From: a virus
IMG/VR virus record: IMGVR_UViG_3300044492_000038
Reading direction: 5' to 3' (one strand)
DNA: 59,356 nt
The notes under the pieces were generated by a model, which was not told the DNA's origin, did no database searches, and saw nothing but the letters and a program-made list of their open reading frames with translations. Position 1 is the stretch's first letter; every line of letters starts with the position of its first letter. The position numbers and the translations under genes are program-made. Below are positions 8,642 to 54,180 of this stretch, piece by piece.

Positions 8642-8645
8642 CATC

Positions 8646-10310: not shown

Positions 10311-11414
10311 GTGGCACAGAAGGTTAACACCGCGTTACGTGATGCGCAAATAGATCACGCAGTGGACTTGCGTGCGTACTCTGACAACGTCGTGCGGCGG
10401 CTTATCAGCATGCTCAATCGAGCCGATGCGGGCTTGTTCTCTGAGCTTGTGCAGAAGCTCGAATACATGACGCCAGAGCGTTTCACGATCAAGCGATTAG
10501 AGGTGATGCTTGAGAGTGTGCGCGTGATGAATCACGAAGCCTTTGCATCGGTCGATGAAGTGTTGCGCGGTGAGATCAAGGGGCTCACTGCTGTTGAATT
10601 GCAATTTCAAGAGGGCATGCTCGCGAAGAACATGCCGCCGTCAATCGACATCGCACGCGTCGACATCAATCAGGTGTATGCGGGCGCGATGTCTCGACCG
10701 TTCCAGGGTGCATTGCTTTCTGAGTTCATGGCGGATCAGGAAGAGTCGAAGGCGCGGCTGATTCGCAGGACCATCGCAGACGGCTACGTACAGAACCGCA
10801 CGACAGATCAGATCGTGCGCGACTTGCGCGGCACACGCGAGAACAAGTATCGTGACGGTGTGCTCGAAGGCTCACGGCGTGAGGTCGCAGCGATCACGCG
10901 CACGGCACTCTCTCACACCGCACAATTCGCGAAAGATCGTGTGACGAAAGCGAATGAAGACATACTCGGAAACCTGCAATGGCTGTCGACGCTCGACGCA
11001 CGCACAACGCCAGAGTGTCAGGTGCGAGACAACAAGCTCTACACGCTCGATCACAAGCCGGTCGATCATGAATACCCGTGGGGTGCTGGGCCTGGGCGGC
11101 TACACTGGCAATGTCGTTCGACCTATGTCATGCTCACGAAATCATGGAAAGAGTTAGGCGTCGACATCGAAGAGTTCGAACCGGGTGAGCGTGCGAGTAT
11201 GGACGGCAGCGTGCCTGCGAAGACCGACTATGAGACATGGCTCGGCAATCAATCAGAGAAAAGACAAATACAAGTGCTCGGTGAGAAGCGGGCCAAACTG
11301 TTCAACGAAGGGGGCTTGACCTTCGATGAACTCCGCAACGCAAGAGGTGAAGAGGTGACATTGAACGATCTCCGTAAGAAGCATAGCGAAGCGTTCAAAA
11401 AAGCCGGTTTGTAG
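10311..11414 (+). CDS. Head morphogenesis protein (SPP1 gp7 / Mu F-like)
   Basis: 367 aa with the LSTLDARTTPECQVRDNKLY motif. It follows the portal gene. Confidence 0.85.
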   Translation: MAQKVNTALRDAQIDHAVDLRAYSDNVVRRLISMLNRADAGLFSELVQKLEYMTPERFTIKRLEVMLESVRVMNHEAFASVDEVLRGEIKGLTAVELQFQEGMLAKNMPPSIDIARVDINQVYAGAMSRPFQGALLSEFMADQEESKARLIRRTIADGYVQNRTTDQIVRDLRGTRENKYRDGVLEGSRREVAAITRTALSHTAQFAKDRVTKANEDILGNLQWLSTLDARTTPECQVRDNKLYTLDHKPVDHEYPWGAGPGRLHWQCRSTYVMLTKSWKELGVDIEEFEPGERASMDGSVPAKTDYETWLGNQSEKRQIQVLGEKRAKLFNEGGLTFDELRNARGEEVTLNDLRKKHSEAFKKAGL

Positions 11415-12093: not shown

Positions 12094-12233
12094 TGCCGCT
12101 GAAGAAGTCCACATCGAAGAAGGCATTCACGAAGAACATCAAGAGCGAGATCAAGGCGGGCAAGCCGGTGAAGCAAGCCGTCGCCATTGCCTACGCGGTC
12201 AAACGCAAGGCGGCGGCGAAGCGCAAGCGCTAG
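12090..12233 (+). CDS. Small Lys/Ala-rich basic protein (47 aa)
   Basis: GGAGG precedes an ATGA overlap. Sequence MMPLKKSTSKKAFTKNIKSEIKAGKPVKQAVAIAYAVKRKAAAKRKR. Confidence 0.5.
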   Translation: MMPLKKSTSKKAFTKNIKSEIKAGKPVKQAVAIAYAVKRKAAAKRKR

Positions 12234-12381
12234 TCTCGTCATCGTCGCGTCGCCTGCGCACTTCTGTCTTGTGCGCAGCGGCGAGCACTGCGCGTGCGAG
12301 CCTGATCTCATAGGCATAATTCGCATCGTCACTGTAAACAGGCAACAGGATGACGATGCGCTTGATTTGATCGTCAGTCAT
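12199..12381 (-). CDS. Hypothetical protein (60 aa)
   Basis: ATGA overlap with the upstream gene. The 3' end overlaps the convergent gene by 35 nt, so support is weak. Confidence 0.35.
   Translation of the reverse strand: MTDDQIKRIVILLPVYSDDANYAYEIRLARAVLAAAHKTEVRRRRDDDETSACASPPPCV
12254..12278. other. 8-bp-stem hairpin at the convergence of the rightward and leftward blocks
   Basis: CTGCGCAC-ttctgtctt-GTGCGCAG. There is no T-run, and it lies inside a weak minus-strand ORF. Confidence 0.3.
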
Positions 12382-12557
12382 CGAGCTACCATTTCGTACA
12401 GTGATGTGGTCTTGTAGCCCATAGCGGCAACTCGCTTGCAAAGTTCGTCGAAGCTTATCTGCCCTAGAGCACATTGCTCTACTAATTCGCCGATCAGTGG
12501 GGTCCTTGCCACTAAAATCACCTGAATATCAGCGATGTGGGTGACGACGATGCTCAT
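12378..12557 (-). CDS. Hypothetical protein (59 aa)
   Basis: Internal ATG 12557 forms an ATGA overlap with the upstream stop. Confidence 0.5.
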   Translation of the reverse strand: MSIVVTHIADIQVILVARTPLIGELVEQCALGQISFDELCKRVAAMGYKTTSLYEMVAR

Positions 12558-12787
12558 GTTCGATTGCTCCTGCCAGTGTGGACGAATGCCTTCGCTTGTT
12601 CGATCTCTTCGAAGCGGTACACCTGCCATGCTGCGAAGTCTTCGAACGACATGCGCCCGTTGCGTACTGCGTCGTATGCTTGCTTCTCGCCCATACCGAC
12701 CCAATAGGGACGCTCGGCGATGTTCTTCATCATGCCATCGAAGATGTTGCCTAGCATGTCTTCGGGCCATCCTGCGTAATCAGCCAT
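12554..12787 (-). CDS. Hypothetical protein (77 aa)
   Basis: Internal ATG 12787 follows GGAGACGAACA and gives an 8-nt overlap. Confidence 0.55.
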   Translation of the reverse strand: MADYAGWPEDMLGNIFDGMMKNIAERPYWVGMGEKQAYDAVRNGRMSFEDFAAWQVYRFEEIEQAKAFVHTGRSNRT

Positions 12788-13043
12788 TGTTCGTCTCCAA
12801 GTAAGCGTTAATCGCGTCGCGTAGTTCTGTGAGTCCTGCGCGATCAAGTTGCACCGTCGCGAGCATGTTGCGCTTCACGCCGCCACGTCCGCCGTGCGTG
12901 ATGCCGCCGTGATGGCGGATTTGCACTGCGCATTGAAATGGTGTGTTGGCGAACACGCGAACGGCGCTCTCTTCGATTTGGAAATGACCGCAGTCTTCGA
13001 TGGTTGCGCGTCCGGCGACTTTGATGTTTGCGAACTCGCTCAT
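12780..13043 (-). CDS. Hypothetical protein (87 aa)
   Basis: ATGA overlap at 13040-13043. Confidence 0.6.
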   Translation of the reverse strand: MSEFANIKVAGRATIEDCGHFQIEESAVRVFANTPFQCAVQIRHHGGITHGGRGGVKRNMLATVQLDRAGLTELRDAINAYLETNNG

Positions 13044-13330
13044 GATGCGTATTTCCTGTGAATGTTGATGACAGCTTGACGAGCGATTGCAGTGATGCGA
13101 GCCGGGTCAATGCTCTCGTCCTGATCGGACAGCCATTGCGCCACGGCACCGAGTTCGATGCTGCACAGCACTTGTGCCTGTAGGCTTGCGCGGTGCGGCT
13201 TTGCGGCTTCGTCTGCGAGCCCCTCGACCCGTGCAAGGGTCTTGAGGTTCAAGAGCGCATTGACGCGAGATTCGATCTCGGCTTGTTTGGCTTCTTTGCG
13301 CAGCAAGCCTGCGTTGAAAGGGATCGACAT
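13040..13330 (-). CDS. Hypothetical protein (96 aa)
   Basis: Internal ATG 13330 lies 2 nt after the upstream TAA. The Arg-rich N-terminal extension was rejected. Confidence 0.6.
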   Translation of the reverse strand: MSIPFNAGLLRKEAKQAEIESRVNALLNLKTLARVEGLADEAAKPHRASLQAQVLCSIELGAVAQWLSDQDESIDPARITAIARQAVINIHRKYAS

Positions 13331-13332
13331 GA

Positions 13333-13623
13333 TTAGGCGGTGATGAGGTTCATGATGGCGGCGCGAGCTTCGGCGCGACGATCTTCGTAGGCGTGAAGCA
13401 TCGGATCGTTGAATGCGCGCAGATGCGCGATGTAGCGTGTGCAGCGGGCGACTTCTTTGACGAGCGCAGCATGATCTTCGCGAACCCATTCGGCAGCGAG
13501 CTTCGCGCCCGTGTTGCTGTCGGAGACTGCGCGGTCAGCGTACTCGCCGTTGACGTACATGACGACTTCGACGGTGTCGCCACTGAGCGTCTCGAAGACT
13601 TGATTGATTTTCGCGGTTTTCAT
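13333..13623 (-). CDS. Hypothetical protein (96 aa)
   Basis: Preceded by type-I cassette A. Confidence 0.65.
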   Translation of the reverse strand: MKTAKINQVFETLSGDTVEVVMYVNGEYADRAVSDSNTGAKLAAEWVREDHAALVKEVARCTRYIAHLRAFNDPMLHAYEDRRAEARAAIMNLITA

Positions 13624-13647
13624 TTGCTGCTTTCTGTGTGAGGCTTG

Positions 13648-13678
13648 ATTATAGCACCGTTATCGAGTAACGGTGCAA
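13648..13678 (-). promoter_or_regulatory. Type-I cassette A: TTGCAC-N19-TATAAT with palindrome GCACCGTTA-N5-TAACGGTGC supplying TGn
   Basis: -10 at 13648-13653. Arms at 13654-13662 and 13668-13676 are perfect over 9 bp. Confidence 0.7.
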
Positions 13679-13685
13679 AATCTTT

Positions 13686-13931
13686 TTAGTTGGCGATGAT
13701 TGCGAGCTTCGCGACGCGGCACTCGCCGACAGGCTTGTATTCAGCCATCTCGCCATCCCAGAACTCATGACGCTCGGCGGCTTCGTTGTCGTACACGAAC
13801 TTGACGATGTGGCCGGTGAGGTGCGAGCGAATCTCGACTTCTTGCGGCAGCGTGCGCATGCCCAGGTCGCGAAGGCTCGCGGTCAGCAGGCGGGAATTCT
13901 TGTTGTAGGCGAATCGGTTGAGGTCAAACAT
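13686..13931 (-). CDS. Hypothetical protein (81 aa)
   Basis: Preceded by cassette B. Confidence 0.65.
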   Translation of the reverse strand: MFDLNRFAYNKNSRLLTASLRDLGMRTLPQEVEIRSHLTGHIVKFVYDNEAAERHEFWDGEMAEYKPVGECRVAKLAIIAN

Positions 13932-13958
13932 TTTGCGTCTTTCTGTTGGTGAGTCTGA

Positions 13959-13999
13959 ATTATAGCACCGTTATGCGCGGTTATCGCGTAACGGTGCAA
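13959..13999 (-). promoter_or_regulatory. Type-I cassette B (same arms, loop expanded to 15 nt)
   Basis: -10 at 13959-13964. Arms at 13965-13973 and 13989-13997. The loop tgcgcggttatcgcg is itself partly palindromic. Confidence 0.65.
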
Positions 14000-14006
14000 A
14001 TTCTTT

Positions 14007-14336
14007 TTAGAAGGGCAGATCGTCGAATTCGAGATCAGCAGCGTAGACCGGCGCGGCGCGGCGGGCCTTCGGGAAGAGCGACGCGGGAAGCAGCGGCTCG
14101 GCGACGTACCAGCTATCGTATTCATCACCGTCGAGACGCTGATGCTTGCCGTTCACGACGGGACGCATAACGCGATATTCGCAAGCGTCGTCGAGGTCAC
14201 GCAGGTAAGCGTCAGCGTAATCCTTCGACACAATGCCGGTGTCGCAGCATGCATAACACGTGTAAGGGATGCCGTCTTCGTCAAGCTCGGGATACAGGGG
14301 ATTGCACTTAGGGCAGGCGGCGGTGAGAGCGTTCAT
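14007..14336 (-). CDS. Zinc-ribbon protein with SSB-like C-terminal tip (..DLEFDDLPF)
   Basis: 109 aa with an N-terminal CPKC...CYACC and the C-terminus EFDDLPF. Preceded by type-II cassette C. Confidence 0.65.
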   Translation of the reverse strand: MNALTAACPKCNPLYPELDEDGIPYTCYACCDTGIVSKDYADAYLRDLDDACEYRVMRPVVNGKHQRLDGDEYDSWYVAEPLLPASLFPKARRAAPVYAADLEFDDLPF

Positions 14337-14350
14337 TTTGCGTCTTTCAG

Positions 14351-14396
14351 AATTCGTTGCGATGACGAATTATAGCACGACGTTTCGGCGTAACGC
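14351..14396 (-). promoter_or_regulatory. Type-II cassette C: TATAAT overlapping hairpin AATTCGT-N7-ACGAATT, with a degenerate CGTTA..AACG dyad upstream
   Basis: -10 at 14369-14374. Hairpin arms at 14351-14357 and 14365-14371. The 22-nt core ttcgttgcgatgacgaattata is shared with cassettes E and H. Confidence 0.6.
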
Positions 14397-14398
14397 AA

Positions 14399-15040
14399 TC
14401 AGATCAGAATTAATTTCTTTCTGAGCCATCGGGCTCGGCCTGTCTTAATCAAATGCATCGCAGCACCGCGTACTTGCAAGTAGGTCAGGTCACACCAACA
14501 CGCAAGGTCCATCTCGGTCATCGGGCCTTCGTCGCGTATCGCTCGCGCCACCGTCGCCGATGGTCCGCGTGCGATCACAGGCACGCTGCCGATGCTGCGC
14601 ACATGGTACTTCACGCCCATTGCATCAGCCGTCGCCATCAGGTCATTCGCATCGTAGCCCAGGTGCCTACAGGCGAGCCCGATCATGACGCCGACGAATC
14701 GCGGGCCATGTCCCTCGTCGTCCGGCGTGAGCCGGTGCGCGGCTTCGTGCAGGATCACCCACGGGTTACGCGCCCAGCGTGGCAAGGTGATCTTGTGGCA
14801 GTCGTGCGCAATCGCGCTACGCTGCCCCCAGGCGGGCCGCTCGATGGCAGGCATGGCAACCCTAGCGAGCCCATAGCGCCCGCGCTCAGAACGCCAGATC
14901 GGGCGCAGGTAGTCGGTGCACTCGTCCAGGGTTGCCAGGGTGCCGAAGTGGTGCGAGCCCTTCGTGATCCGGGTTTCCCATCGGTAAACTTTGCTCTTCT
15001 GGTTATCGCGCCCGCGTAGGGCAACATCGTTACGCGCCAT
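14399..15040 (-). CDS. SprT-like HExxH zinc metalloprotease with C-terminal winged-helix-like region
   Basis: 213 aa from the internal ATG 15040. Contains KVYRWE and VILHEAAHRL...GHGPRF. Confidence 0.7.
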   Translation of the reverse strand: MARNDVALRGRDNQKSKVYRWETRITKGSHHFGTLATLDECTDYLRPIWRSERGRYGLARVAMPAIERPAWGQRSAIAHDCHKITLPRWARNPWVILHEAAHRLTPDDEGHGPRFVGVMIGLACRHLGYDANDLMATADAMGVKYHVRSIGSVPVIARGPSATVARAIRDEGPMTEMDLACWCDLTYLQVRGAAMHLIKTGRARWLRKKLILI

Positions 15041-15329
15041 CGCGTTCTCTGAGCCATGCAAGCGCTTCACGTGCACACGGTGCGTCCCATCCAAACATGG
15101 ACGCCTGCAACGCAGAGCGAAGCACCGCATCGCTTGCGGGTCGTCCGTTAAGTTCTTCATGGTCCGGATGATGCAAAGGCCAGAAGCCTTTGTCACCGAG
15201 CTTGACGCCGATCATCGGTGCGTCGACGAACGTCAAGGCCATGTGTGCAGGCATGAAGATCATGCCCTTGACATCGGGCATGCTGCGGTTTCTTTCGCTC
15301 GGGTGTTGGATAGCTGATGCGGGTTTCAT
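15030..15329 (-). CDS. Hypothetical protein (99 aa)
   Basis: The ATG follows CACAGAAAGCACGAC and overlaps the upstream stop (ATGA). Confidence 0.55.
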   Translation of the reverse strand: MKPASAIQHPSERNRSMPDVKGMIFMPAHMALTFVDAPMIGVKLGDKGFWPLHHPDHEELNGRPASDAVLRSALQASMFGWDAPCAREALAWLRERDGA

Positions 15330-15535
15330 GTCGTGCTTTCTGTGGTTTGCATGCGTGGGTTGAGAGATGCGGCGAACAGGCTTCGAGCGTATGCGCGCAG
15401 GAGTGCGTGTTGCTCGGGCAGCAAGTAGATGCCGCGCACTTCCGTCTTGCCTTCGACAGTGCGTCGGGCTCGATAGAGTGCTTGACGTTCGGCGGTAGTT
15501 TGTGCGCTCATGATGCTTGTGCCTTTGTGGTTCAT
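15326..15535 (-). CDS. Putative ribbon-helix-helix (CopG/Arc-like) DNA-binding protein
   Basis: 69 aa with AERQALYRARRTVEGKTEVRGIYLLPEQHALLRAYA, which resembles CopG-type RHH regulators. ATGA overlap with the upstream gene. Confidence 0.5.
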   Translation of the reverse strand: MNHKGTSIMSAQTTAERQALYRARRTVEGKTEVRGIYLLPEQHALLRAYARSLFAASLNPRMQTTESTT

Positions 15536-15858
15536 GCGAAGAGGTGCGCGTCGTTGCGCGCCAGGATTGCGCCTTCGTAGTCGAACGAAGGTGCGCGGTT
15601 GAAGCTCGCGAGAACAGCCGCACCGCGTGCGTTGTGCTCGGCGACTGCTGCTGCCCATCCCTTCGGCGTGAACACGCGTGAGCATGCGCAGCCGAAGCCG
15701 TCAGTTGCAGCGGTGACGCGAAAACCGGCGATTGCGAGAGCGTCGACGACGACGGTGTCGAGCGTGGGCACGTTGGCGTATCCGTTGTTGCCCATCTCGG
15801 CTTCGGTCAGTGCGAAGAAGATCGAGGCGGTTTGTTCGGCGGTGTAGATCACGGTCAT
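15532..15858 (-). CDS. Hypothetical protein (108 aa)
   Basis: Preceded by cassette D. Confidence 0.65.
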   Translation of the reverse strand: MTVIYTAEQTASIFFALTEAEMGNNGYANVPTLDTVVVDALAIAGFRVTAATDGFGCACSRVFTPKGWAAAVAEHNARGAAVLASFNRAPSFDYEGAILARNDAHLFA

Positions 15859-15884
15859 TTGCTGCTTTCTGTTGGTGTGGAAGA

Positions 15885-15913
15885 ATTATAGCACCGTTAT
15901 CGGGTAACGGCGC
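15885..15913 (-). promoter_or_regulatory. Type-I cassette D (one arm mismatch)
   Basis: -10 at 15885-15890. Arms GCACCGTTA at 15891-15899 and TAACGGCGC at 15905-15913. Confidence 0.6.
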
Positions 15914-15921
15914 ATTTATTT

Positions 15922-16050
15922 TTACGCCTTGTAAACAGCGTGAACGACTTCGCCGACTTGGCGATGATAGGCGGCGAGCGCTGCACGCTCGAAGCCGTTA
16001 ACCCAGATGTGGGCGGTGCGAATGGAGGTGACAATTCGGATCAGGTTCAT
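15922..16050 (-). CDS. Hypothetical micro-protein (42 aa)
   Basis: Has its own type-II cassette E and the leader CGAAAGACGCAAA before the ATG. It falls below the ORF-track size cutoff. Confidence 0.4.
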   Translation of the reverse strand: MNLIRIVTSIRTAHIWVNGFERAALAAYHRQVGEVVHAVYKA

Positions 16051-16063
16051 TTTGCGTCTTTCG

Positions 16064-16112
16064 AATTTCGTTGCGATGACGAATTATAACCCGTTATTGC
16101 GTAACGTCGCAA
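16064..16112 (-). promoter_or_regulatory. Type-II cassette E, with promoter and dyad embedded in the 3' end of the upstream gene
   Basis: -10 at 16083-16088 overlaps the stop codon at 16084-16086. CGTTA-N5-TAACG at 16092-16106. TTGCGA at 16107-16112. Confidence 0.55.
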
Positions 16113-16293
16113 GCGCTTTCTGAAAATGTTCGTAGGCGTCTTCTTTTGCCGCTCGAAACGTCGTCGACTGCGAGACTTCGACACCGTTGTACTTCAGTGT
16201 CCACACGTCACCCAGGCGCGAATGTTCCTTCTGGCATGTGTAATTGCCCCAGAAGTACCGCCCGTGCGCGTACTTGGCGCGGTGCCATGTCAT
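16084..16293 (-). CDS. Hypothetical protein (69 aa)
   Basis: Internal ATG 16293 forms an ATGA overlap. Confidence 0.55.
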   Translation of the reverse strand: MTWHRAKYAHGRYFWGNYTCQKEHSRLGDVWTLKYNGVEVSQSTTFRAAKEDAYEHFQKALATLRNNGL

Positions 16294-16754
16294 GCGGGCA
16301 CCTCCACGAGCACCCAGGCTTGCACCCACTTGCGCCCGTCTTCACCTGGGACGCTCGCGATCTGCGGCAGCGGGTCGAATTGCATGACGCCTTCGCGCAC
16401 TGCGACGGCAAACTTCTGTTCTGCTGCGCGCACGATTGCCATCTCTTGCCGCGTCGATTCCTGTCGACGCTTGCGATCTTCTTCGGCCTGGGCATCGCGT
16501 TGCGCTTGCTCTGCGCGTGCTGCGTCGAGCCATCGACCGTATCGAATCCAATCAATGTTTTGCGTGAGCAACCATGCTTCGGCTTCGAGATCGTCGAAGA
16601 CGACGCTTGTGCCTAGACTACCCTCCCACGGTGCCTGTCTGCCGCTGATGCGGCCTGTGACGCTCACGCGCCCGTTCTCGTACTGGTGCACGTTGACCGA
16701 GTCGAGCAACCGGCTCGCGTTGTTCTTTGCGTCTTTGTTGATGCGAAATTTCAT
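16290..16754 (-). CDS. Hypothetical protein (154 aa)
   Basis: Internal ATG 16754 forms an ATGA overlap. The Arg-rich extension was rejected. Confidence 0.6.
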   Translation of the reverse strand: MKFRINKDAKNNASRLLDSVNVHQYENGRVSVTGRISGRQAPWEGSLGTSVVFDDLEAEAWLLTQNIDWIRYGRWLDAARAEQAQRDAQAEEDRKRRQESTRQEMAIVRAAEQKFAVAVREGVMQFDPLPQIASVPGEDGRKWVQAWVLVEVPA

Positions 16755-17155
16755 GATGCTTCTGTAGGTAGGTTGCTCAATACTTCGTCGTGCATCTCGA
16801 CATCGTCGAAGCTGACTTCGGCGTCGGGCATGTCGATTGCGGCTTCGTCGAGGTCGACGCTCTGCCATGCTTCGATCATCTCGCGCACTGCTTCGCCTTT
16901 CTCGCCTTCTTGCCACCGCTCGGACTTCTCTTCGAAATCATTCTCCCAATTCTGCGCGACATCTTCGGCGAATGCCTTCGCTTCAGTGAGCGCTTCATTG
17001 TAGATGTCTAGTGCCGCTTGCAGTTCGTTGCGTGCGACGGTCATCGCATCATTGAAGGCAACGACAGCGGTGTCGACCGCTTCGCGTTGCTCTTGAATCT
17101 TCACCGCGATTGCGTCGCGCTGTGCGATCTGTTCTTTGCCGAGTTTGAAAAGCAT
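16751..17155 (-). CDS. Highly acidic coiled-coil protein (134 aa)
   Basis: 34 Asp/Glu versus 11 Lys/Arg by my count. The leader GAAAGAAAGACGACA precedes the ATG. Confidence 0.65.
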   Translation of the reverse strand: MLFKLGKEQIAQRDAIAVKIQEQREAVDTAVVAFNDAMTVARNELQAALDIYNEALTEAKAFAEDVAQNWENDFEEKSERWQEGEKGEAVREMIEAWQSVDLDEAAIDMPDAEVSFDDVEMHDEVLSNLPTEAS

Positions 17156-17168
17156 TGTCGTCTTTCTT

Positions 17169-17342
17169 TCAGTTTGTGGATTTGAGTGCCGACACCGGCA
17201 GCGCGATCTCTCCGCGCATTTTGCGGCCTGTCACCGGGCACACTTCTTTGAGTTGCGCATACTTCTCGTTGCCGATCACGCGAAAGCCCAGGATCAAGAA
17301 GGTTCCGACTTTCGCGCCTTTGACTGTTTGTCCGATTTGCAT
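17169..17342 (-). CDS. Hypothetical protein (57 aa)
   Basis: Hand-translated: MQIGQTVKGAKVGTFLILGFRVIGNEKYAQLKEVCPVTGRKMRGEIALPVSALKSTN. Preceded by cassette F. Confidence 0.5.
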   Translation of the reverse strand: MQIGQTVKGAKVGTFLILGFRVIGNEKYAQLKEVCPVTGRKMRGEIALPVSALKSTN

Positions 17343-17369
17343 TTTGTGCCTTTCTGTTGGTGTGTAGAG

Positions 17370-17400
17370 ATTATAGCACCGTTATCGGGTAACGGTGCAA
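17370..17400 (-). promoter_or_regulatory. Type-I cassette F (perfect)
   Basis: -10 at 17370-17375. Arms at 17376-17384 and 17390-17398. TTGCAC at 17395-17400. Confidence 0.7.
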
Positions 17401-17407
17401 ATTCTTT

Positions 17408-17674
17408 TTAGTTGGCGGCGTAAACAGTGCGCTTCGCGTTCCACTTGTCGACGACGGGCTTGCCGTTCTCGTCTTCGTCGATTGCGACGTGAACGACGGT
17501 CTGCAAGACGCGAGCGAAGCGCTTTTCGCCCGTGTTGTTGAAAGCGATCTCGAAGGGGAAACCGTTCTGCGCGCCCCAGGAATCAGCGGCGGCGGTGAAG
17601 AACTCTGCCCAATGCTTGCGGCCAGAGTCGTCGCGCCATTCGATTTGTCCTGCGGGTTTGTTTGCTGCGGTCAT
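17408..17674 (-). CDS. Hypothetical protein (88 aa)
   Basis: Internal ATG 17674 follows ACAGAAAGCAGACC. Preceded by cassette G. Confidence 0.6.
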   Translation of the reverse strand: MTAANKPAGQIEWRDDSGRKHWAEFFTAAADSWGAQNGFPFEIAFNNTGEKRFARVLQTVVHVAIDEDENGKPVVDKWNAKRTVYAAN

Positions 17675-17709
17675 GGTCTGCTTTCTGTTTCCGGGTTGCT
17701 GAAGCCTAG

Positions 17710-17740
17710 AGTATAGCACACCGTTATCGAGTAACGGTGC
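17710..17740 (-). promoter_or_regulatory. Type-I cassette G (TGCTATACT; 8-bp arms CACCGTTA/TAACGGTG)
   Basis: -10 at 17710-17715. Arms at 17719-17726 and 17732-17739. Confidence 0.6.
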
Positions 17741-17751
17741 GCCTTTCTTTT

Positions 17752-18141
17752 TTATTTCGCGATCACTGCGAAGGGTTTGTTCCACTTGCCGACGTTGATG
17801 TCGACGTAGTGTCCGACGTGGAAATAATCGGTCATGCTGTCGGACTTGTCGAAGTTGTCGAGGTTCAACGCTTCGCTGATCTTTTCAAACGTCGCGGTGA
17901 TCTCGGCATCGGTGAAACATTCGTCGATGCGCTTGTGATAGATTTGCGCATACGTCATCGTCTCGGGTTTGCGATACTCACTCGGCACGAGCGCTGCGAT
18001 CAGGTTGACAGGTGCAGCCGAGATCGTCAGAACGATGGTCGAATGATTGTTGACAGCAAGAGAAAATTTCCAGCCTTTGGGCATGACTGCCTTCAGTGCC
18101 GTTGCGATCTTTGCTTTCTTCTGTTGGTCTACGTATGCCAT
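17752..18141 (-). CDS. Hypothetical protein (129 aa)
   Basis: Preceded by type-II cassette H. Confidence 0.65.
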   Translation of the reverse strand: MAYVDQQKKAKIATALKAVMPKGWKFSLAVNNHSTIVLTISAAPVNLIAALVPSEYRKPETMTYAQIYHKRIDECFTDAEITATFEKISEALNLDNFDKSDSMTDYFHVGHYVDINVGKWNKPFAVIAK

Positions 18142-18158
18142 GATTTGCTTTCTAGGTT

Positions 18159-18204
18159 AATTCGTTGCGATGACGAATTATAGCATGGCGTTTCGGCGTA
18201 ACGC
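18159..18204 (-). promoter_or_regulatory. Type-II cassette H
   Basis: Hairpin at 18159-18165 and 18173-18179. -10 at 18177-18182. Same 22-nt core and the GCGTTTCGGCGTAACGC dyad as cassette C. Confidence 0.6.
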
Positions 18205-18206
18205 AA

Positions 18207-18692
18207 CTACGGGCGAAAGAATTCTCCGAATATTTCGCGGGCCGCTTTGTCATAGGCCGCTTTCGCTTCTTCAATTGTGGCGAAGTGACCGAGATGTCGA
18301 TTGTGAATGCGCGCTTTCCACGGCTTGTCGAGTCGCTGCGAATGACTAACGCCTTTTGCGCCTGATGGGTTGTCTGCGTGCACAGAGGCATTGCCGTTGT
18401 TCATCGACTGGTTTGCGAGACGCAAATTATTCCAGCGATTATTTACTTCGTCATGATCTCTATGGTCAACGCCTGTTGTCGGCCATTCGCCGGTCATGTA
18501 GAGCCATGCCAAGCGGTGCGCGAGATGCTTGCTCCCATCGACGTTGACGTACACATAGCCAGCACCGTTAATGCTTCCGGCGACTTCACCGGCCCGACCT
18601 CCCCTAGCGTTGCTGACGGTGATGCGTCGAGTAAAAAGCCCGGTGTCGGGCTCGTAGATCAGGAGTTCGCGCAGGCGTTCGACGGTCAGCAT
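18207..18692 (-). CDS. HNH homing endonuclease with AP2-type DNA-binding domain
   Basis: 161 aa with HRLAWLYMTGEWP..VDHRDHD..NNRWNNLR (the HNH part) and GVSHSQRLDKPWKARI...LGHFATIEEAKAAYDKAA (the AP2 part). Confidence 0.85.
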   Translation of the reverse strand: MLTVERLRELLIYEPDTGLFTRRITVSNARGGRAGEVAGSINGAGYVYVNVDGSKHLAHRLAWLYMTGEWPTTGVDHRDHDEVNNRWNNLRLANQSMNNGNASVHADNPSGAKGVSHSQRLDKPWKARIHNRHLGHFATIEEAKAAYDKAAREIFGEFFRP

Positions 18693-18940
18693 CAGATCAC
18701 GTATTTATTGCGGATCAGGAATGCTAACAGATCGGCCTGCGTGCCTTCGCGGGTCTTTCCCTTATAGAGCGGGTGACAGTTTACATAGTAGACCGTCTTG
18801 CCTTCTCTGCATAGCTCGCCGATCAGCGGCAGTGCCTTCGCTTCGAGCCGCTCGATCTTGTCGACGGTCTTGTCGTCGCGATTCATGCGCGTGATGTGCT
18901 TGCGTTCCATGATCTCGTCCCAGGATTTGCGTGCTGTCAT
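18692..18940 (-). CDS. Hypothetical protein (82 aa)
   Basis: Internal ATG 18940 follows CAACAGAAAGCAGAGA. Confidence 0.55.
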   Translation of the reverse strand: MTARKSWDEIMERKHITRMNRDDKTVDKIERLEAKALPLIGELCREGKTVYYVNCHPLYKGKTREGTQADLLAFLIRNKYVI

Positions 18941-18960
18941 TCTCTGCTTTCTGTTGGTGT

Positions 18961-18985
18961 GCACCGAGTATAGCATACTCGGTGC
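18961..18985 (-). promoter_or_regulatory. Perfect 25-nt palindrome (10-bp arms) enclosing TGCTATACT
   Basis: gcaccgagta-tagca-tactcggtgc. The -10 lies at 18967-18972. Confidence 0.6.
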
Positions 18986-18993
18986 CGTTAATC

Positions 18994-19290
18994 TTACAGG
19001 CTCGTGAACAATCCCGTGTGTTGTTCGAAGACAGCGCGCAGTTTGTCGGCATAGACGCCGGACTCGCTTGACACTTGCTTGATGTTCACGCCCATGTTCG
19101 TGCGCTTGTTGAACATCACCGTGTAAGTGTCGGTGGCGTCGAGGCGCACGACGACAGAGTTGATCTTGCGGTTCGGCAGTTGGAAGTGAAGAGCGTTCTC
19201 GGTGCCGACGAAGTTCTTCGCGCCGGTCATGGCGATGAAGCGATTGCCGCCGAGTTGCTGAAGGATGGTGTTTGCGACTGCGTTGTTCAT
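18994..19290 (-). CDS. Hypothetical protein (98 aa)
   Basis: Preceded by cassette J. The N-terminus reads ANTILQQLGGNRFIAMTGAKNF. Confidence 0.65.
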   Translation of the reverse strand: MNNAVANTILQQLGGNRFIAMTGAKNFVGTENALHFQLPNRKINSVVVRLDATDTYTVMFNKRTNMGVNIKQVSSESGVYADKLRAVFEQHTGLFTSL

Positions 19291-19316
19291 TTCTGTCTTT
19301 CGGTTGGTGTGAATGA

Positions 19317-19342
19317 ATTATAGCAGCGTTATCGCGTAACGC
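19317..19342 (-). promoter_or_regulatory. Type-I cassette J (GCGTTA-N5-TAACGC + TGCTATAAT), overlapping the upstream stop codon
   Basis: -10 at 19317-19322. Arms at 19326-19331 and 19337-19342. Confidence 0.6.
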
Positions 19343-19529
19343 AAGCACCTGATGCAAAATTCTTTTTTGCAGCCCGTGCGCGGGATTGCTTGGCGCGCAG
19401 CGCTGCCCAATAGGCGACGACGACGCGAGCGCGGGCGAGTTGGTGCGGTTCGAACTTGTCGGCGCGTGCGACCATGTCAGCGGCGGTGCCGAGAGTCATC
19501 GTGAGCGAGTTTTTGCTGATCTTGTTCAT
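19329..19529 (-). CDS. Hypothetical protein (66 aa)
   Basis: Preceded by TGCTATACT at 19556-19564. Confidence 0.55.
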   Translation of the reverse strand: MNKISKNSLTMTLGTAADMVARADKFEPHQLARARVVVAYWAALRAKQSRARAAKKNFASGACVTR

Positions 19530-19555
19530 TTCTGTCTTTCTGTTGGTGTGCCGCT

Positions 19556-19564
19556 AGTATAGCA
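19556..19564 (-). promoter_or_regulatory. Extended -10 TGCTATACT
   Basis: Read on the minus strand, immediately after the terminator hairpin. Confidence 0.5.
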
Positions 19565-19565
19565 C

Positions 19566-19602
19566 AGATAAAAAGAAGAAGAGCAAGTGCCCTTCTTCTT
19601 TT
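19566..19602 (-). terminator. Rho-independent terminator after the 188-aa gene
   Basis: Minus strand reads AAGAAGAAG-GGCACTTGCT-CTTCTTCTT followed by TTTAT. The stem is 9-11 bp. Confidence 0.7.
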
Positions 19603-19604
19603 AT

Positions 19605-20171
19605 TCATACAGCCTTCGGGCGGTTGATGATGGTTTGTGCGACACCGTTATACGCACCGTGTTCTTTCACAGTGGCTTTCACCGTGACGGTTGCGCCTTG
19701 TTCGCCGAGTTCCTTGCTGCCCTTGTAGACAAATGCGTTGCCGTTCGCATCGGTCATGATGTGGATGTAGGTCATGCCATACATGCCGTCTAGTTCCATC
19801 AATTTGTTGATCGTGAGCGTGAACTCTTCGCGCTGTCCGACGGTCGACACGTGATGTCCAGAGCTTGCCGGTGCGTTGCGTGCGTCGATCTTCGCCTGTG
19901 CCTTTGCGCGGGCCTTCTCAAGCATGCCGCGTGCTGCGTTCAATTGAGCCGGTGACAGTGAGCCACGGTCTTCGAACGAGTTGTGCAAGGACTTCGCGAA
20001 CTCGGACCAACTAGAGGCGCTATAGAGGCAGTCGATCACGTCCTGTGCGTCGGTGTTCTCGCGAAAGAACTTGGCGCGGGCGGCTTCTTTGATGCGACGC
20101 TTGATGGCGGCTTCGTAGGCTGCTTCGTCTTCGATGACGCGAACTCGGGTGAAGGTGTGATTGCTGTTCAT
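19605..20171 (-). CDS. Hypothetical protein (188 aa), first gene of the leftward block
   Basis: Preceded by TGCTACAAT at 20206-20214. Confidence 0.65.
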   Translation of the reverse strand: MNSNHTFTRVRVIEDEAAYEAAIKRRIKEAARAKFFRENTDAQDVIDCLYSASSWSEFAKSLHNSFEDRGSLSPAQLNAARGMLEKARAKAQAKIDARNAPASSGHHVSTVGQREEFTLTINKLMELDGMYGMTYIHIMTDANGNAFVYKGSKELGEQGATVTVKATVKEHGAYNGVAQTIINRPKAV

Positions 20172-20205
20172 GGTGTGCTTTCTGTTGTGGGTTGCTGATG
20201 TCGCA

Positions 20206-20214
20206 ATTGTAGCA
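20206..20214 (-). promoter_or_regulatory. Extended -10 TGCTACAAT heading the leftward early block
   Basis: GTGACC lies 18 nt upstream and serves as a weak -35. Confidence 0.5.
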
Positions 20215-20377
20215 CGAGAAATTAAGCCGGGTCACGCGTAACGAGACATATCCTGAGCTTTTTAATCGGGTATTTGACGAGAATCGTTCGATGTGGCAGG
20301 AATTTGTCTTGTGTTCGCCTGGGACATGGCGTAATGTCTCGTGGCTTCGTGCTGTATCAACTCAACTAGGAACAAAC

Positions 20378-20905
20378 ATGCTGAAGATTGCGCTCGCCCT
20401 TATCACTGCAACTCTGATGACGGCGGCGCTAGCCGCGAACGTGCACTTCAAACAGAACCGAAACCCGACGCTCATTGACAACGGCTTATCCCTCACGGCA
20501 GCGGGCTCGCTCGCGGGCCTGGGCGAAGGTGACATCGCCGTCACGCTCTCTGCATCGGGCACGATCACCGCGACATGCACGAACCCTAGCGGGCAGAATC
20601 AGCCGCCCGGTCAAGTCCCGCAACCCGTGACGCTGTCGGGCTCGGTGGCAATTCCAGACGAGCAATTCAAGAATGGCAACGTCGGCTTCAGCGTGACGAC
20701 GACACCGCCCGATGCAGTCATTGCCGGTGCGCCCGACTGTCCAAATTCGCATTGGACCGAGCGCATCACCGACATCAAATTCACGTCGATGACACTCACG
20801 GTGCAACAAGGCGGCGTCACTGTTCTCTCGACAACTTGCACCACTTCTGCGCCGACGCAGAACGGTCCCGTGTCGCCGAGTCTCGTCTCTTGCACACCTA
20901 CCTGA
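20378..20905 (+). CDS. Secreted protein with Sec-type signal peptide (175 aa, 4 Cys)
   Basis: Internal ATG gives MLKIALALITATLMTAALA/ANV. The mature part is Thr/Ser/Gly-rich. Confidence 0.6.
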   Translation: MLKIALALITATLMTAALAANVHFKQNRNPTLIDNGLSLTAAGSLAGLGEGDIAVTLSASGTITATCTNPSGQNQPPGQVPQPVTLSGSVAIPDEQFKNGNVGFSVTTTPPDAVIAGAPDCPNSHWTERITDIKFTSMTLTVQQGGVTVLSTTCTTSAPTQNGPVSPSLVSCTPT

Positions 20906-21188: not shown

Positions 21189-22001
21189 ATGTTCTTGACT
21201 CGCAATGTCTTGATGAAGTATCGCTACCCTGATCCTGAAGGCGGTGGCGGCGGCGGTTCTCCCCCTCCCCCTCCTGCTCCCCCTGCTCCCCCTGCTCCCC
21301 CTCAGATACCCGAGAACCTGAAGCCCATCGTGCAAGGCATGATCGAGGCCGCAGTCAGTGAGCAAGTCGCCGGACTGAAGGCGAAGAACGGCGAGTTGAT
21401 CGGCAAAGAGAAAGAACTCAAGGCCAATCTCGCGCAGTTCGACGGCATCGACCCTGAAGCTGTTCGCACCATTCTCAAACGCTTCGTGGATGATGAAGAA
21501 GCGACGCTAATCAAACAGGGCAAGCTCGATGAAGTGTTGAACAAACGCACCGAGCGCATGGCGGCGGATTGGGATAAGAAGGTCAAGGCTGAAACTGCAC
21601 GCGCCGACAAGCTGAAAGCAAAAGCCGACAAGCTCGCAGAACGTGCGATGGCTGAATCAATCATCAAGGCATCGCAGAAGGCAGGCGCACTGCCTGAAGC
21701 AACAGAAGACATCGTGCTTCGCGCTAAGGGCGCGGGCTGGACTATCGACGACGACGGCAATGTTATCGCCATGAGCGGCGACACAATTGTCTTCGGCAAA
21801 GACGGCAAGACGCCCCTCACGCCCGAAGAGTGGGCGGCATCTCTGCGCGAGAACGCTCCCCATCTCTGGCCGAGGGCACAGGGTTCCGGTGCAACAGGCA
21901 CCAACGGTAACGCTAAGGGCGGTGCTGATCTTTCCAAACTCCCGCCCGAAGCACGCATCACACAGTTCCGCGCCCAACAAGCGCACGGTGCTGCACGCTA
22001 A
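21189..22001 (+). CDS. Capsid scaffolding protein
   Basis: 270 aa with a Gly/Pro-rich N-terminus and a charged coiled-coil centre. It lies directly upstream of the major capsid gene. Confidence 0.7.
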   Translation: MFLTRNVLMKYRYPDPEGGGGGGSPPPPPAPPAPPAPPQIPENLKPIVQGMIEAAVSEQVAGLKAKNGELIGKEKELKANLAQFDGIDPEAVRTILKRFVDDEEATLIKQGKLDEVLNKRTERMAADWDKKVKAETARADKLKAKADKLAERAMAESIIKASQKAGALPEATEDIVLRAKGAGWTIDDDGNVIAMSGDTIVFGKDGKTPLTPEEWAASLRENAPHLWPRAQGSGATGTNGNAKGGADLSKLPPEARITQFRAQQAHGAAR

Positions 22002-53231: not shown

Positions 53232-53258
53232 GGTTAGCCTTTCTGTGTGTGTTTGAAA

Positions 53259-53295
53259 ATCACCGCAGTGTGAATTGCTGCGGTGATGAATTATA
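53259..53295 (-). promoter_or_regulatory. TATAAT (53290-53295) followed by a 10-bp-stem leader hairpin plus TTTTC
   Basis: Minus strand reads TATAATTC-ATCACCGCAG-caattcaca-CTGCGGTGAT-TTTCAAACACACACAGAAAGG. Confidence 0.55.
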
Positions 53296-54139: not shown

Positions 54140-54180
54140 TTCGTGCTTTCTGTTTGTTCGGCTCAACCACTGAGCCGATG

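Follow-up and report, generated by a model that had tools for sequence, protein, structure and literature searches.

What is the function of a hairpin-forming dyad that recurs at promoter after promoter among the small genes of one phage? The window analysed here (the whole stretch of DNA, 59,356 nucleotides) comes from an uncultured tailed phage whose genome of about 59 kb encodes a tape-measure protein, a family A DNA polymerase and an SPP1-gp7-like head-morphogenesis protein. Rightward head-morphogenesis genes run to 11414 and are followed by small plus-strand genes to 12233, while rightward scaffold and capsid genes begin at 20369/21189. Between these flanks lies a hyperplastic region:

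12233..20260, minus strand: array of about 25 small leftward genes, almost all ORFans in Pfam/PHROGs scans, and one HNH endonuclease.

Twelve promoter-like sites (TGnTAYAAT/TTATAAT) are found on the minus strand of the array within 6.6 kb, from 13648 to 20214, against about 0.2 by chance, and each is followed 24-35 nt downstream by an ATG. This confirms the repeated cassette reported in a first-pass annotation of the sequence. TGCTATAMT alone has 10 matches where 0.16 are expected, all on the minus strand from 13648 to 19564; the looser TGNTAYAMT adds one site at 20206-20214, and a TTATAAT without the TG at 16083-16089 is the twelfth. As the annotation had described, this is a textbook extended -10 whose TG is supplied by the 3' arm of a dyad, and the cassettes also show an A-tract, a TTGCAC at 19-bp spacing and the leader CACCAACAGAAAG. 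The pattern CGTTA-N(3-17)-TAACG-N4-TAWAMT occurs five times (0.00 expected), and CCGTTA-N5-TAACGG with up to two mismatches eight times (1.13 expected), seven of these in the array and the eighth at 51330, within a coding region outside it. The repeat is real, but where at least seven perfect dyads had been announced, the 12 promoters carry five strong GCACCGTTA-loop-TAACGGTGC copies, one short and three degenerate; three promoters, including the first (20206-20214), lack the motif altogether. The copy given as '15885-13' is present, and its mistyped coordinates are to be read as 15885-15913. The cassettes are the following, with z scores of RNA folding against shuffles:

20206..20214, minus strand: first promoter of the array (TGCTACAAT); hairpin not significant, with a mere GTTACGCGTGAC remnant at about -45 to -34.
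19556..19602, minus strand: cassette with an unrelated hairpin, AAAAGAAGAAGGGC-ACUU-GCUCUUCUUCUUUU plus UAU at 19571-19602 (z -6.6), of canonical terminator shape and directly 5' of the -10 TGCTATACT (19556-19564).
19317..19342, minus strand: short-dyad cassette, GCGTTA-CGCGA-TAACGC (6 bp, 19326-19342) adjoining TGCTATAAT (19317-19325); the preceding ORF runs into the dyad and the fold is not significant.
18961..18985, minus strand: hairpin around the -10, GCACCGAGUA-UGCUA-UACUCGGUGC, enclosing TGCTATACT (18967-18975; z -4.5); the outer GCACC/GGTGC is common to the main dyad, the inner part is replaced, and the orthologue in relative L007 has a compensated GCGCC/GGCGC.
18159..18204, minus strand: type II cassette, degenerate core GCGTTACGCCGAAACGC with one mismatch (18188-18204), TGCTATAAT at 18177-18185; a second dyad, AATTCGT-N7-ACGAATT, spans the start site (18159-18179).
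17710..17743, minus strand: 12-pair hairpin cassette, GGCGCACCGUUA-CUCGA-UAACGGUGUGCU (17715-17743) running into TGCTATACT (17710-17718; z -6.1); stop codon within the A-rich tract upstream.
17342..17409, minus strand: canonical type I cassette, TAA plus AAAGAATTT, perfect dyad GCACCGTTA-CCCGA-TAACGGTGC (17376-17398; z -5.6), -10 TGCTATAAT (17370-17378), leader CACCAACAGAAAG (17350-17362), ATG at 17342.
16065..16106, minus strand: type II cassette within the 3' end of the preceding ORF, exact core CGTTACGCAATAACG (16092-16106), TTATAAT without TG (16083-16089), second dyad at 16065-16085.
15885..15913, minus strand: type I cassette, dyad GCGCCGTTA-CCCGA-TAACGGTGC (15891-15913; z -2.0) with one G·U pair on the transcribed strand (G·T in DNA), -10 TGCTATAAT (15885-15893).
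14351..14396, minus strand: type II cassette, degenerate core GCGTTACGCCGAAACGT with one mismatch (14380-14396), TGCTATAAT at 14369-14377, second dyad at 14351-14371; hairpin not significant.
13959..13997, minus strand: type I cassette with the same 9-bp arms (13965-13997; z -5.2) and -10 TGCTATAAT (13959-13967); its 15-nt 'loop' is a 10-nt duplication that pairs as an extra CGCG/CGCG stem, a form also found in L007.
13623..13690, minus strand: type I cassette, TAA plus AAAGATTTT, perfect dyad GCACCGTTA-CTCGA-TAACGGTGC (13654-13676; z -5.0), -10 TGCTATAAT (13648-13656), leader CACACAGAAAG, ATG at 13623.
53255..53295, minus strand: site in the replication-gene region, outside the range of the first-pass annotation; TATAAT and, 3 nt on, the hairpin TCACCGCAG-N9-CUGCGGUGA plus UUUUC.

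For seven of the 12 window cassettes the folding energy is -13 to -22 kcal/mol (z -2.0 to -6.6). RNA from 13648, 13959, 17370, 17710, 18967 and 19556 folds far better than shuffles (z -4.5 to -6.6) and that from 15885 reaches z -2.0, while folding at the remaining five (14369, 16084, 18177, 19317 and 20206) is no better than in shuffles. Pairing of the arms was examined in 61 distinct dyads from the window and its relatives against 500 shuffles that take the copies as unrelated. Paired cells amount to 86.3% versus 79.1% in shuffles, and the covariation score to 0.207 versus 0.112 (0/500 reach the observed value in either case, kinship of the copies being ignored); pairing falls to 28-58% when the partner is slid. 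The outer stem changes in compensated steps, from GCACC/GGTGC to GCGCC/GGCGC, TCGCC/GGCGA or TCACC/GGTGA, as does CCGTTA/TAACGG to GCGTTA/TAACGC. Where the stems depart from Watson-Crick pairing, G·T on the transcribed strand accounts for 41 cells (10 distinct events) and A·C for 3 cells (2 events), an excess expected of RNA made from this strand. Taken at the level of sequence, these changes indicate that pairing of the dyad arms is under selection. The geometry around the stem is loose: the distance from dyad to -10 is 1, 2, 3, 4, about 7, 11 or 14 nt, and the loop measures 3 to 15 nt. Strong stems lie at least 7 nt past the upstream stop codon in 27-29 of 29 cases, and 18 of 32 weak stems lie inside or abut coding sequence. 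Conservation of the inner core CGTTA/TAACG, and of the C and A that close the loop, exceeds the needs of a hairpin, partly by ascertainment as the core served as search key, and the core persists even in cassettes whose stems lack the strength to fold (type II here, several in L052).

The same cassettes were found in about 50 related metagenomic contigs, and there the slot of the dyad is also filled by unrelated hairpins, some with T-runs behind. Examples are CAGCCC-GCAA-GGGCTG in L052, CGGGC-TTCG-GCCCG in L040 and AAAGCCCCAC...GTGGGGCTTT in L012/L026; in L002/L003 the dyad itself lies 11 nt upstream, followed by TTTTCT. The window holds such replacements at 19571-19602 (then a T-run) and at 18961-18985 (around the -10), and its replication region follows the same principle with other hairpins. 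There, the hairpin at 53255..53295 shares the design principle of the array cassettes and would be a terminator for read-through; transcripts from its own promoter would miss its 5' arm. In parallel, gene content is shuffled. Four relatives have the array region, about 9.8 kb long, reduced to 2.7-3.6 kb, units g08, g12, g13 and g17 have altered positions in L007, L047, L039 and L002, and single-gene units are relocated, inserted or deleted among relatives with breakpoints inside cassettes. Of 124 homology-block ends, which are not independent as HSP ends, 55 lie within 60 nt of a -10, a zone that makes up 17% of the region.

The explanation that we consider probable is that each module is a composite cassette resembling the promoter-early stem-loops (PeSLs) of T4-type phages, in which a promoter for the host RNA polymerase and an attenuator hairpin are combined and which doubles as a recombination site. 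The predicted promoter would be strong, presumably early, and -35-independent, read by host sigma-70 through the extended -10 TGnTATAAT. The A-rich tract upstream, which holds the stop codon of the previous gene, looks like a proximal UP element. The probable start of transcription is the CA about 7 nt past the -10, giving a predicted leader of about 20 nt that is A/C-rich and unstructured, with AGAAAG as ribosome-binding site. The dyad, placed between A-tract and -10, would be absent from the transcript of its own unit and transcribed only by polymerases coming from the upstream unit. Such read-through RNA would fold a 9-12-bp hairpin just past the stop codon of the upstream gene. The likeliest effect of this hairpin is to attenuate or terminate read-through and to protect the upstream 3' end, which would leave each small gene insulated under its own promoter. 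Insulation or termination had been a secondary idea of the first-pass annotation, and it is the better supported one. Read as a T-run, the A-tract may also let the hairpin halt antisense transcription from the flanking late genes. The module shares with Rho-independent terminators a G+C-rich 9-12-bp stem with a 3-5-nt loop directly past a stop codon, an A-tract on the 5' side and, in some variants (window 19571-19602; TTTTCT in L002/L003), a real T-run. It differs in having a promoter joined to the hairpin. Read in the sense direction, the type I hairpin has the -10 box, UAUAAU(C/U), behind it and not a canonical U-tract, so full termination is unlikely; its attenuation is assumed by analogy with PeSLs.

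The conserved core has another possible explanation, in which the dyad CACCGTTAY-N3-RTAACGGTG is the operator of one dimeric repressor, encoded by the phage or the host, that overlaps the -35/spacer region, occludes RNA polymerase and shuts the whole array, for example at the early-to-late transition; it could replace the RNA hairpin role or act alongside it. The site is a 17-21-bp palindrome with three variable central base pairs and nearly invariant half-sites inside the RNA polymerase footprint at 9 of 12 promoters. Its core is retained in cassettes unable to fold stably and in relatives as distant as 74% identity in the head-morphogenesis protein. The motif is also phage-specific: bacterial genomes totalling 596 Gb contain 7 scattered matches, estimated to be about chance level. 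However, arm changes that are compensatory or G·U on one strand are not predicted for a protein site, the half-site tolerates A+G substitutions (TAGC, TGAC), which form wobble pairs, and two phages have in common a conserved 10-bp insertion that separates the half-sites. Unrelated hairpins take the position of the dyad, its distance to the -10 varies as described above, and the first promoter is among the three without it. Pfam or PHROGs scans of about 70 ORFs detected no HTH, RHH or other DNA-binding domain, and the protein at 15326-15511, proposed to be RHH-like, gave an alpha-beta-beta-alpha model with no fold match and is not supported as an RHH protein. For the claim that one regulator controls a whole early regulon there was no positive evidence, and we regard the operator as unlikely, keeping it as a possible additional role of the inner core because that core is so conserved. 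The Aca-controlled anti-CRISPR promoters evoked by the annotation do have an inverted repeat overlapping a strong phage promoter, but each Aca site belongs to a single operon in which the HTH regulator itself is encoded, whereas here there are 12 promoters and no HTH gene by Pfam and PHROGs. P1 C1 operators and the phiC31 conserved inverted repeats are multi-site repressor systems, and with such systems the array has in common one short conserved site repeated many times in short intergenic spaces beside promoters. Another such system is that of the stoperators in cluster A mycobacteriophages, asymmetric 13-bp sites to which the monomeric immunity repressor of a temperate phage binds (PMC9283540). 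The site here is a palindrome with compensatory changes for which other hairpins can substitute, and no repressor or integrase gene was found among about 70 ORFs scanned with Pfam or PHROGs.

A MerR-type regulator bound to the dyad would realign -35 and -10 across an over-long 19-bp spacer, and some copies do read TTGCAC-N19-TATAAT with the dyad filling the spacer. Nevertheless, the TTG is missing there in many copies (AAATGCACC, CAACGCACC, AAAAGCACC), extended -10 promoters do not need a -35, and no MerR-family domain was found by Pfam/PHROGs scans of about 70 ORFs; the mechanism, suggested in the annotation, is already contradicted by the variable spacing and loop length and is the least probable of all. 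Hardly more credible is a DNA hairpin promoter for a phage or virion RNA polymerase, as in N4, or an attC-like recombinase site, even though a hairpin-forming dyad is repeated where transcription units begin and gene cassettes have moved among relatives. Every copy goes together with a consensus sigma-70 extended -10, and the scans, which took in the 2205-aa and 1313-aa ORFs, detected no domain of an RNA polymerase, integrase or recombinase. The 9-bp stem and 5-nt loop here are also unlike those of N4 promoters, where the stem measures 5-7 bp and the loop 3 nt, and the arms do not match the attC R''/R' cores (RYYYAAC/GTTRRRY).

The PeSL-type cassette, by comparison, has a described precedent, although the first-pass annotation had recognised the motif from no known system. 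PeSLs are known from RB49/phi1, PST/T4 and nt-1/KVP40 and comprise, in order, a stop codon in an A/T-rich tract, a sigma-70-type promoter, a stem-loop, a ribosome-binding site and a start codon, the stem-loop lying mostly between -35 and -10 or overlapping the -10, with other positions also occurring (Arbiol et al. 2010, PMC2839356; Comeau et al. 2014, PMC4122927). They have lineage-specific consensus stems, G-T pairs and degraded copies near indels; the stem-loop terminated transcription in a reporter, and terminator activity, promoter activity and mini-circles were demonstrated experimentally (PMC2839356, PMC4122927). The present cassettes show the same order of parts, G-T pairs, a consensus stem of their own and degraded copies; both kinds flank ORFans in hyperplastic regions embedded among core genes, and in both indels, replacements and displacements between relatives break within cassettes. 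Differences are that the phage of about 59 kb is not T4-like, that its extended -10 lacks a usable -35 whereas RB49 has TTGACA-N17-TATAAT, that its stems share one specific sequence of mixed composition (GCACCGTTA) and are much more uniform than Gn/Cn tracts, that the ribosome-binding site is AGAAAG, and that the cassettes here are described from sequence whereas activities and mini-circles were shown there. The modules match the mobile PeSL cassettes of T4-like phages better than a new repressor-controlled regulon. Being about 65 bp long and repeated a dozen times, they would act as portable homology, and recombination inside them would duplicate, delete, relocate and swap single-gene units between related phages while keeping the copies alike, a concerted evolution that may account for the conserved stem sequence.

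The first-pass annotation had described a repeated promoter-dyad cassette on the minus strand of the window, and in substance this description is borne out. The motif TGCTATAMT is present in 10 copies against 0.16 expected, all of them on the minus strand between 13648 and 19564, and the dyad fused to this -10 is found five times against 0.00 expected. The looser TGNTAYAMT gives one more site at 20206-20214 and TTATAAT is found at 16083-16089. Altogether, 12 promoter-like elements, recognized by consensus match only, lie within 6.6 kb of one strand where about 0.2 would be expected. Each of them is located 24-35 nt upstream of an ATG that is preceded by AGAAAG. In the complete module, TAAAAAGAATTT or TAAAAATAAA precedes the dyad and AGAAAG-N6-8-ATG comes after it.

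Array genes as well as many replication genes (13623-20190, 192-204, 2640, 53239-53251, 54146-54158 and 55891) share an A/C-rich leader whose end, ACAGAAAG, lies 6-8 nt upstream of the ATG. Several other genes have a classical GGAG or AGGAG site (compare 11431, 12090, 27671 and 53876). A 16S rRNA tail ending in CCUCCUUUCU, as found in some Betaproteobacteria and Firmicutes, would be complementary to AGAAAG(G), and the DUF3567 protein (3171-3425) may give the same host hint. In the three type II cassettes, those with a degenerate dyad core, a second dyad AATTCGT-N7-ACGAATT starts inside the -10 (14351-14371, 16065-16085 and 18159-18179; 3 copies against 0.21 expected). It was rejected as a structure or an operator, one arm being changed without compensation in relatives (TTCTT, TTCCT, TTCAT), and looks like an alternative leader (TCATCGCAACGAA). 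Two freshwater metagenome contigs, L080 (2102) and L093 (2868), contain TGCTATAAT-gtaat-CACACCAACAGAAAG; their upstream sequence is otherwise different, as is the gene that follows. It may be that the half of the cassette with promoter and leader has a wider circulation than the dyad. A metagenome scan anchored on the -10 and leader yielded about two new family cassettes among the matches listed, which were mostly single chance matches.

The dyad itself was thought to be perfect in at least seven copies; five strong copies were found, together with one short and three degenerate forms:

13654-13676 and 17376-17398, minus strand, strong dyads
13965-13997, minus strand, strong dyad with a 15-nt loop
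15891-15913, minus strand, strong dyad with one G·T
17715-17743, minus strand, strong dyad of 12 pairs
19326-19342, minus strand, short form of the dyad
14380-14396, 16092-16106 and 18188-18204, minus strand, degenerate cores

Two further promoters of the array have different hairpins. With up to two mismatches, CCGTTA-N5-TAACGG has 8 matches against 1.13 expected, 7 of them within the array; the match at 51330 was discarded because it falls within coding sequence and lacks a promoter. In the enlarged loop at 13965-13997, 10 nt of the 3' half are imperfectly duplicated in tandem (CGCGATAAC followed by CGCGCATAAC). This loop is kept in two phages (window 13965-13997; related contig L007, 9008-9040), in both cases 3' of gene g16, the next gene being g17 in the window and g18 in L007. 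Upstream of the cassette at 19317, a 66-aa ORF (19329-19529, minus strand) reads through the A-tract and ends at a TAA within the 3' arm of the dyad. This cassette appears to be chimeric, joining a 5' part of type I to a core of type II.

Folded as RNA, the cassettes at 13648, 13959, 17370, 17710, 18967 and 19556 reach -13 to -22 kcal/mol with z scores of -4.5 to -6.6, and the cassette at 15885 has a z score of -2.0. Those at 14369, 16084, 18177, 19317 and 20206 fold no better than shuffles. Four positions were seen for the hairpin: in the stretch from the A-tract to the -10; around the -10 (18961-18985); upstream, followed by a T-run (19571-19602); and 3' of the -10 (53255-53286). An intrinsic terminator consists of a G+C-rich hairpin and then a U-tract; here the hairpin is there but the sense tail of the main type is UAUAAU, with no U-tract. 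A true T-run after the hairpin is found at 19571-19602 in the window and in variants of contigs L002 and L003. Read on the plus strand, the dyads at 13654-13690, 17376-17409 and 17715-17756 are followed by T-rich runs (AAATTCTTTTT, CCTTTCTTTTTTATTT), so that antisense transcripts running into the array from the rightward late genes could be terminated there as well.

In the replication-gene region (minus strand), further G+C-rich hairpins, unrelated in sequence, lie between genes at 53255-53295, 53889-53905, 54159-54177 and 54880-54902. One is located directly 3' of a TATAAT and has a U-run, two are intercistronic and have no U-runs, and one is located at a predicted transcript 5' end. At 53255-53295 (minus strand), a hairpin and UUUUC come 3 nt after TATAAT; the design principle is the same, with another hairpin. 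From its layout, this element would be a terminator in read-through RNA, and RNA started at its own promoter would be devoid of the 5' arm of the hairpin.

The window represents all or most of a phage genome, in which the following genes were recognized:

6963-8420, rightward, large terminase
8604-10307, rightward, portal
10311-11414, rightward, SPP1-gp7-type head-morphogenesis protein
21189-22001, rightward, scaffold
22029-22955, rightward, major head protein
rightward, tail protein and tape-measure-like protein of 1313 aa
45517-46890, rightward, lysozyme-domain protein

A family A DNA polymerase, a helicase, a primase and Pam3-gp32/33/34-like proteins are also encoded, mostly leftward, the primase genes being rightward. 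The window has no tRNA genes, and Pfam or PHROG scans of about 70 of its ORFs revealed no integrase, repressor or RNA polymerase domain. The rightward ORF 20369-20905 (plus strand), located between array and scaffold gene, has a signal-peptide-like N-terminus (MLKIALALITATLMTAALA...) and matches no family; a moron-like gene for a surface protein or lipoprotein is a possible identity. Another ORF of 2205 aa (34590-41207, plus strand) has no Pfam domain and matches a PHROG of unknown function at residues 1503-1873 only. It presumably encodes a tail or host-recognition protein.

Neither megablast with the array nor blastn with one cassette gave a match in 50,697 phage records. The best portal and DNA polymerase matches among cultured phages are at 48-49% amino-acid identity and, as the nearest thus do not exceed 49%, there is no annotated relative to lean on. 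Such cassettes are not mentioned in the papers on phiAH14a, Medea1 and PseuP_222, which are distant lambdoid phages. Relatives were sought in IMG/VR: searching with the dyad and -10 gave 8 loci, and with the -10 and leader, independently of the dyad, 37 loci. With the head-morphogenesis protein as query, 19 loci of 74-85% identity were obtained. The set assembled from these searches comprises 75 distinct promoter cassettes and 63 distinct dyads.

Across 61 distinct dyads, a standard pair occupies 86.3% of cells against 79.1% in shuffles, which take the copies as unrelated and of which 0 of 500 reach this value; when the partner is slid, 28-58% of cells pair. The covariation score is 0.207 against 0.112 in shuffles (0/500). 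The variation is borne by the outer four pairs: pair 8-24 is CG in 32 dyads, GC in 8 and GU in 5, while pair 5-27 is GC in 20, GU in 17, CG in 5, AU in 2 and UA in 2. Compensated changes lead from GCACC/GGTGC to GCGCC/GGCGC, TCGCC/GGCGA and TCACC/GGTGA, and from CCGTTA/TAACGG to GCGTTA/TAACGC. Pairing of the dyad is maintained through change, a result that is supportive but not conclusive. On the transcribed strand, non-Watson-Crick cells amount to 41 G·T (10 distinct events) against 3 A·C (2 events), many of the G·T cells coming from weak-stem copies; well-formed hairpins show three clear G·T events and no A·C. Such a bias is predicted for RNA made from the transcribed strand and is not predicted for a protein site on duplex DNA.

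Unrelated hairpins were found in the slot of the dyad:

window 19571-19602, AAGAAGAAGGGC...GCUCUUCUUCUU, then UUUUAU
window 18961-18985, hairpin enclosing the -10, compensated in the L007 orthologue
contig L052, CAGCCC-GCAA-GGGCTG, abutting TGCTACAAT
contig L040, CGGGC-TTCG-GCCCG
contigs L012 and L026, AAAGCCCCAC...GTGGGGCTTT
contig L007, CTCAAGAA...TTCTTGAG

The distance from dyad to -10 is mostly 2 nt, with values of 1, 3, 4, about 7, 11 and 14 nt as well. In L002/L003, the dyad (TCGCCGTTA...TAACGGCGA) lies 11 nt upstream of the -10 and is followed by TTTTCT, the shape of a canonical terminator. Loops measure 3, 5 or 15 nt and occur in both orientations. The opposite orientation was seen at L019 737, L003 8621 and L012 1069 (CGTTATCGAGTAACG, CGTTAGCGCGTAACG), as expected if the palindrome inverts at times or if recombination falls within the arms. 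Strong stems lie at least 7 nt past the upstream stop codon in 27-29 of 29 cases, and 18 of 32 weak stems are in or abut coding sequence. Taken together, the kept pairing, the G·T bias and the unrelated hairpins in the slot support, from sequence, the alternative already raised in the first-pass annotation that the element could insulate or terminate each unit as a hairpin.

The inner core CGTTA/TAACG shows hardly any variation, nor do the C and A that close the loop, and they persist where cassettes cannot fold, as in the type II cassettes of the window and several in L052. This is partly a matter of ascertainment because the core served as a search key. In the promoter-anchored set of 73 cassettes, the core is present in about 53, another hairpin is found in about 12 and about 8 are devoid of both. 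By phage type, the dyad is absent from L040-type phages, mostly degenerate in L052-type phages and present in many copies in the window type. Judged from these sequences, conservation of the inner core nevertheless exceeds the needs of a hairpin. This brings in the possibility that the dyad is a repressor operator, either instead of or in addition to a hairpin. The core is a conserved site within the polymerase footprint at 9 of the 12 promoters (about -35 to -13), and the dyad looks like a 17-21-bp operator with a free centre. It is also phage-specific: 596 Gb of bacterial genomes contain 7 scattered matches, estimated at about chance level, so that it is not the motif of a host regulon, and prophage copies were not found in them either. 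On the other hand, no regulator is at hand, as Pfam and PHROG scans of about 70 ORFs gave no DNA-binding domain, and the proposal of one regulator for the whole regulon thus gained no positive evidence. Profile searches, however, frequently miss small phage regulators. Covariation and G·U are seen in the outer four pairs, and the inner five do not vary but are themselves the search key. The kept pairing, the one-sided G·T, the unrelated hairpins in the slot and the variable distance to the -10 all oppose a sequence-reading protein as the main constraint, and an operator function appears unlikely. The protein encoded at 15326-15511, suggested earlier as an RHH-like binder, has no Pfam or PHROG support for this assignment. 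Its AlphaFold model (pLDDT 80.1) consists of a helix, a hairpin and a second helix (alpha-beta-beta-alpha), and no solved structure in the PDB matches it by sequence or fold; the RHH assignment was rejected.

A combined reading is that the dyad is bifunctional. As RNA it would be a read-through attenuator, and as double-stranded DNA its core CGTTAC-N3-ATAACG would be the operator of an unrecognisable small phage protein silencing the whole ORFan array. We regard this as a speculative proposal with a low chance of being right. If true, it would amount to a 'stoperator-like' global switch in a virulent phage, borne on a mobile promoter cassette. Equally speculative is the idea that genes flanked by cassettes might pass from one co-infecting phage to another in the form of excised mini-circles. 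Activation of the MerR type, also envisaged initially, is contradicted by the variable geometry. MerR-type promoters have a fixed 19-20-bp spacer between a good -35 and the -10 with the dyad centred in it, whereas here the -35 is absent in many copies, the dyad lies 1-14 nt from the -10 and the loop varies from 3 to 15 nt. N4-like hairpin promoters and integron attC sites were dropped on geometry and missing enzymes. An NtrC-like site (TGCACC...GGTGCA) was dropped on its spacing, which is 11 nt in the window and 5 nt in such sites.

The array consists of about 25 small genes and runs on the minus strand from about 20170 down to about 12233, between the oppositely transcribed head-morphogenesis and scaffold blocks. 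Among 21 of its ORFs that were scanned, an annotated function was obtained for the HNH endonuclease (18207-18692) alone; the rest are without a Pfam family, and a few of the proteins match PHROG families of unknown function. The distance from the head-morphogenesis gene to the scaffold gene is about 9.8 kb in the window against 2.7-3.6 kb in the related contigs L040, L041, L045 and L053, in which the first array gene alone is recognisable. Among relatives, gene order differs exactly at the single-gene units flanked by cassettes: g08, g12, g13 and g17 are found elsewhere in L007, L047, L039 and L002. Separate DNA homology blocks cover 13617-13979 (g17), 15855-16106 (g12), 15647-15927 (g13) and 17196-17412 (g08), their ends being 1-40 nt away from a -10. 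In total, 55 of the 124 block ends fall within 60 nt of a -10, positions that make up 17% of the region, with the reservation that some contigs are near-duplicates and the ends are not independent. The endonuclease gene, of the HNH_3/AP2 homing type (18207-18692, minus strand), has no promoter cassette of its own, and L039 contains two homing endonuclease copies at different places of the array (12833-13315 and 18411-18887). Homing may add to the plasticity of the region.

Comparable elements are the promoter-early stem-loops (PeSLs) of T4-type phages (Arbiol et al. 2010, PMC2839356; Comeau et al. 2014, PMC4122927). In PeSLs, an upstream stop codon in an AT-rich tract is followed by a sigma-70-like early promoter, a Shine-Dalgarno and a start codon. 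The stem-loop, with G-T pairs, lies mostly between the -35 and -10 or over the -10, and sometimes upstream or just 3' of the -10 (PMC2839356, PMC4122927). Each phage lineage has its own consensus stem, with degraded copies near indels. PeSLs cluster in hyperplastic, ORFan-filled regions where relatives differ by indels, replacements and displacements at PeSLs (PMC2839356, PMC4122927). One such stem-loop was about equal to rrnB T1 as a terminator in a reporter, and mini-circles arise by recombination between neighbouring PeSLs (PMC2839356, PMC4122927).

Every one of these sequence-level features of PeSLs is present in the window cassettes. They include a repeated intergenic motif with a sigma-70-type promoter (by consensus only), a stop codon in an AT-rich tract on the 5' side with a ribosome-binding site and start codon on the 3' side, a stable stem-loop at the promoter (7 of 12 cassettes fold, z -2.0 to -6.6), a hyperplastic ORFan-rich region among core genes, and breakpoints of indels, replacements and displacements at the cassettes. 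In contrast with PeSLs, the phage is not T4-like (tape-measure protein, SPP1-type head-morphogenesis protein, about 59 kb), the promoter is an extended -10 with no usable -35, the stem has an unusually uniform, mixed sequence and the ribosome-binding site is AGAAAG. The difference in phage group is one of taxonomic range, not of mechanism. No PeSL outside T4-like phages was reported in the literature searched, and similar repeats were not found there in other phages either. The cassette is thus probably a PeSL-type composite of promoter and attenuator that would also serve as a recombination substrate.

The roughly 75 natural variants of the ~65-bp module from related contigs represent a ready mutational series for the effects of a hairpin joined to an extended -10 on termination and initiation, and a source of short, strong and insulated expression parts. 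The ORFans flanked by cassettes are probably early host-takeover or anti-defence genes. The finding would extend mobile promoter/terminator cassettes of the PeSL type beyond T4-like myoviruses to an unrelated, uncultured lineage of about 59 kb. It points to "portable regulatory homology" as a general means by which phages take up and shuffle accessory genes and express them independently.
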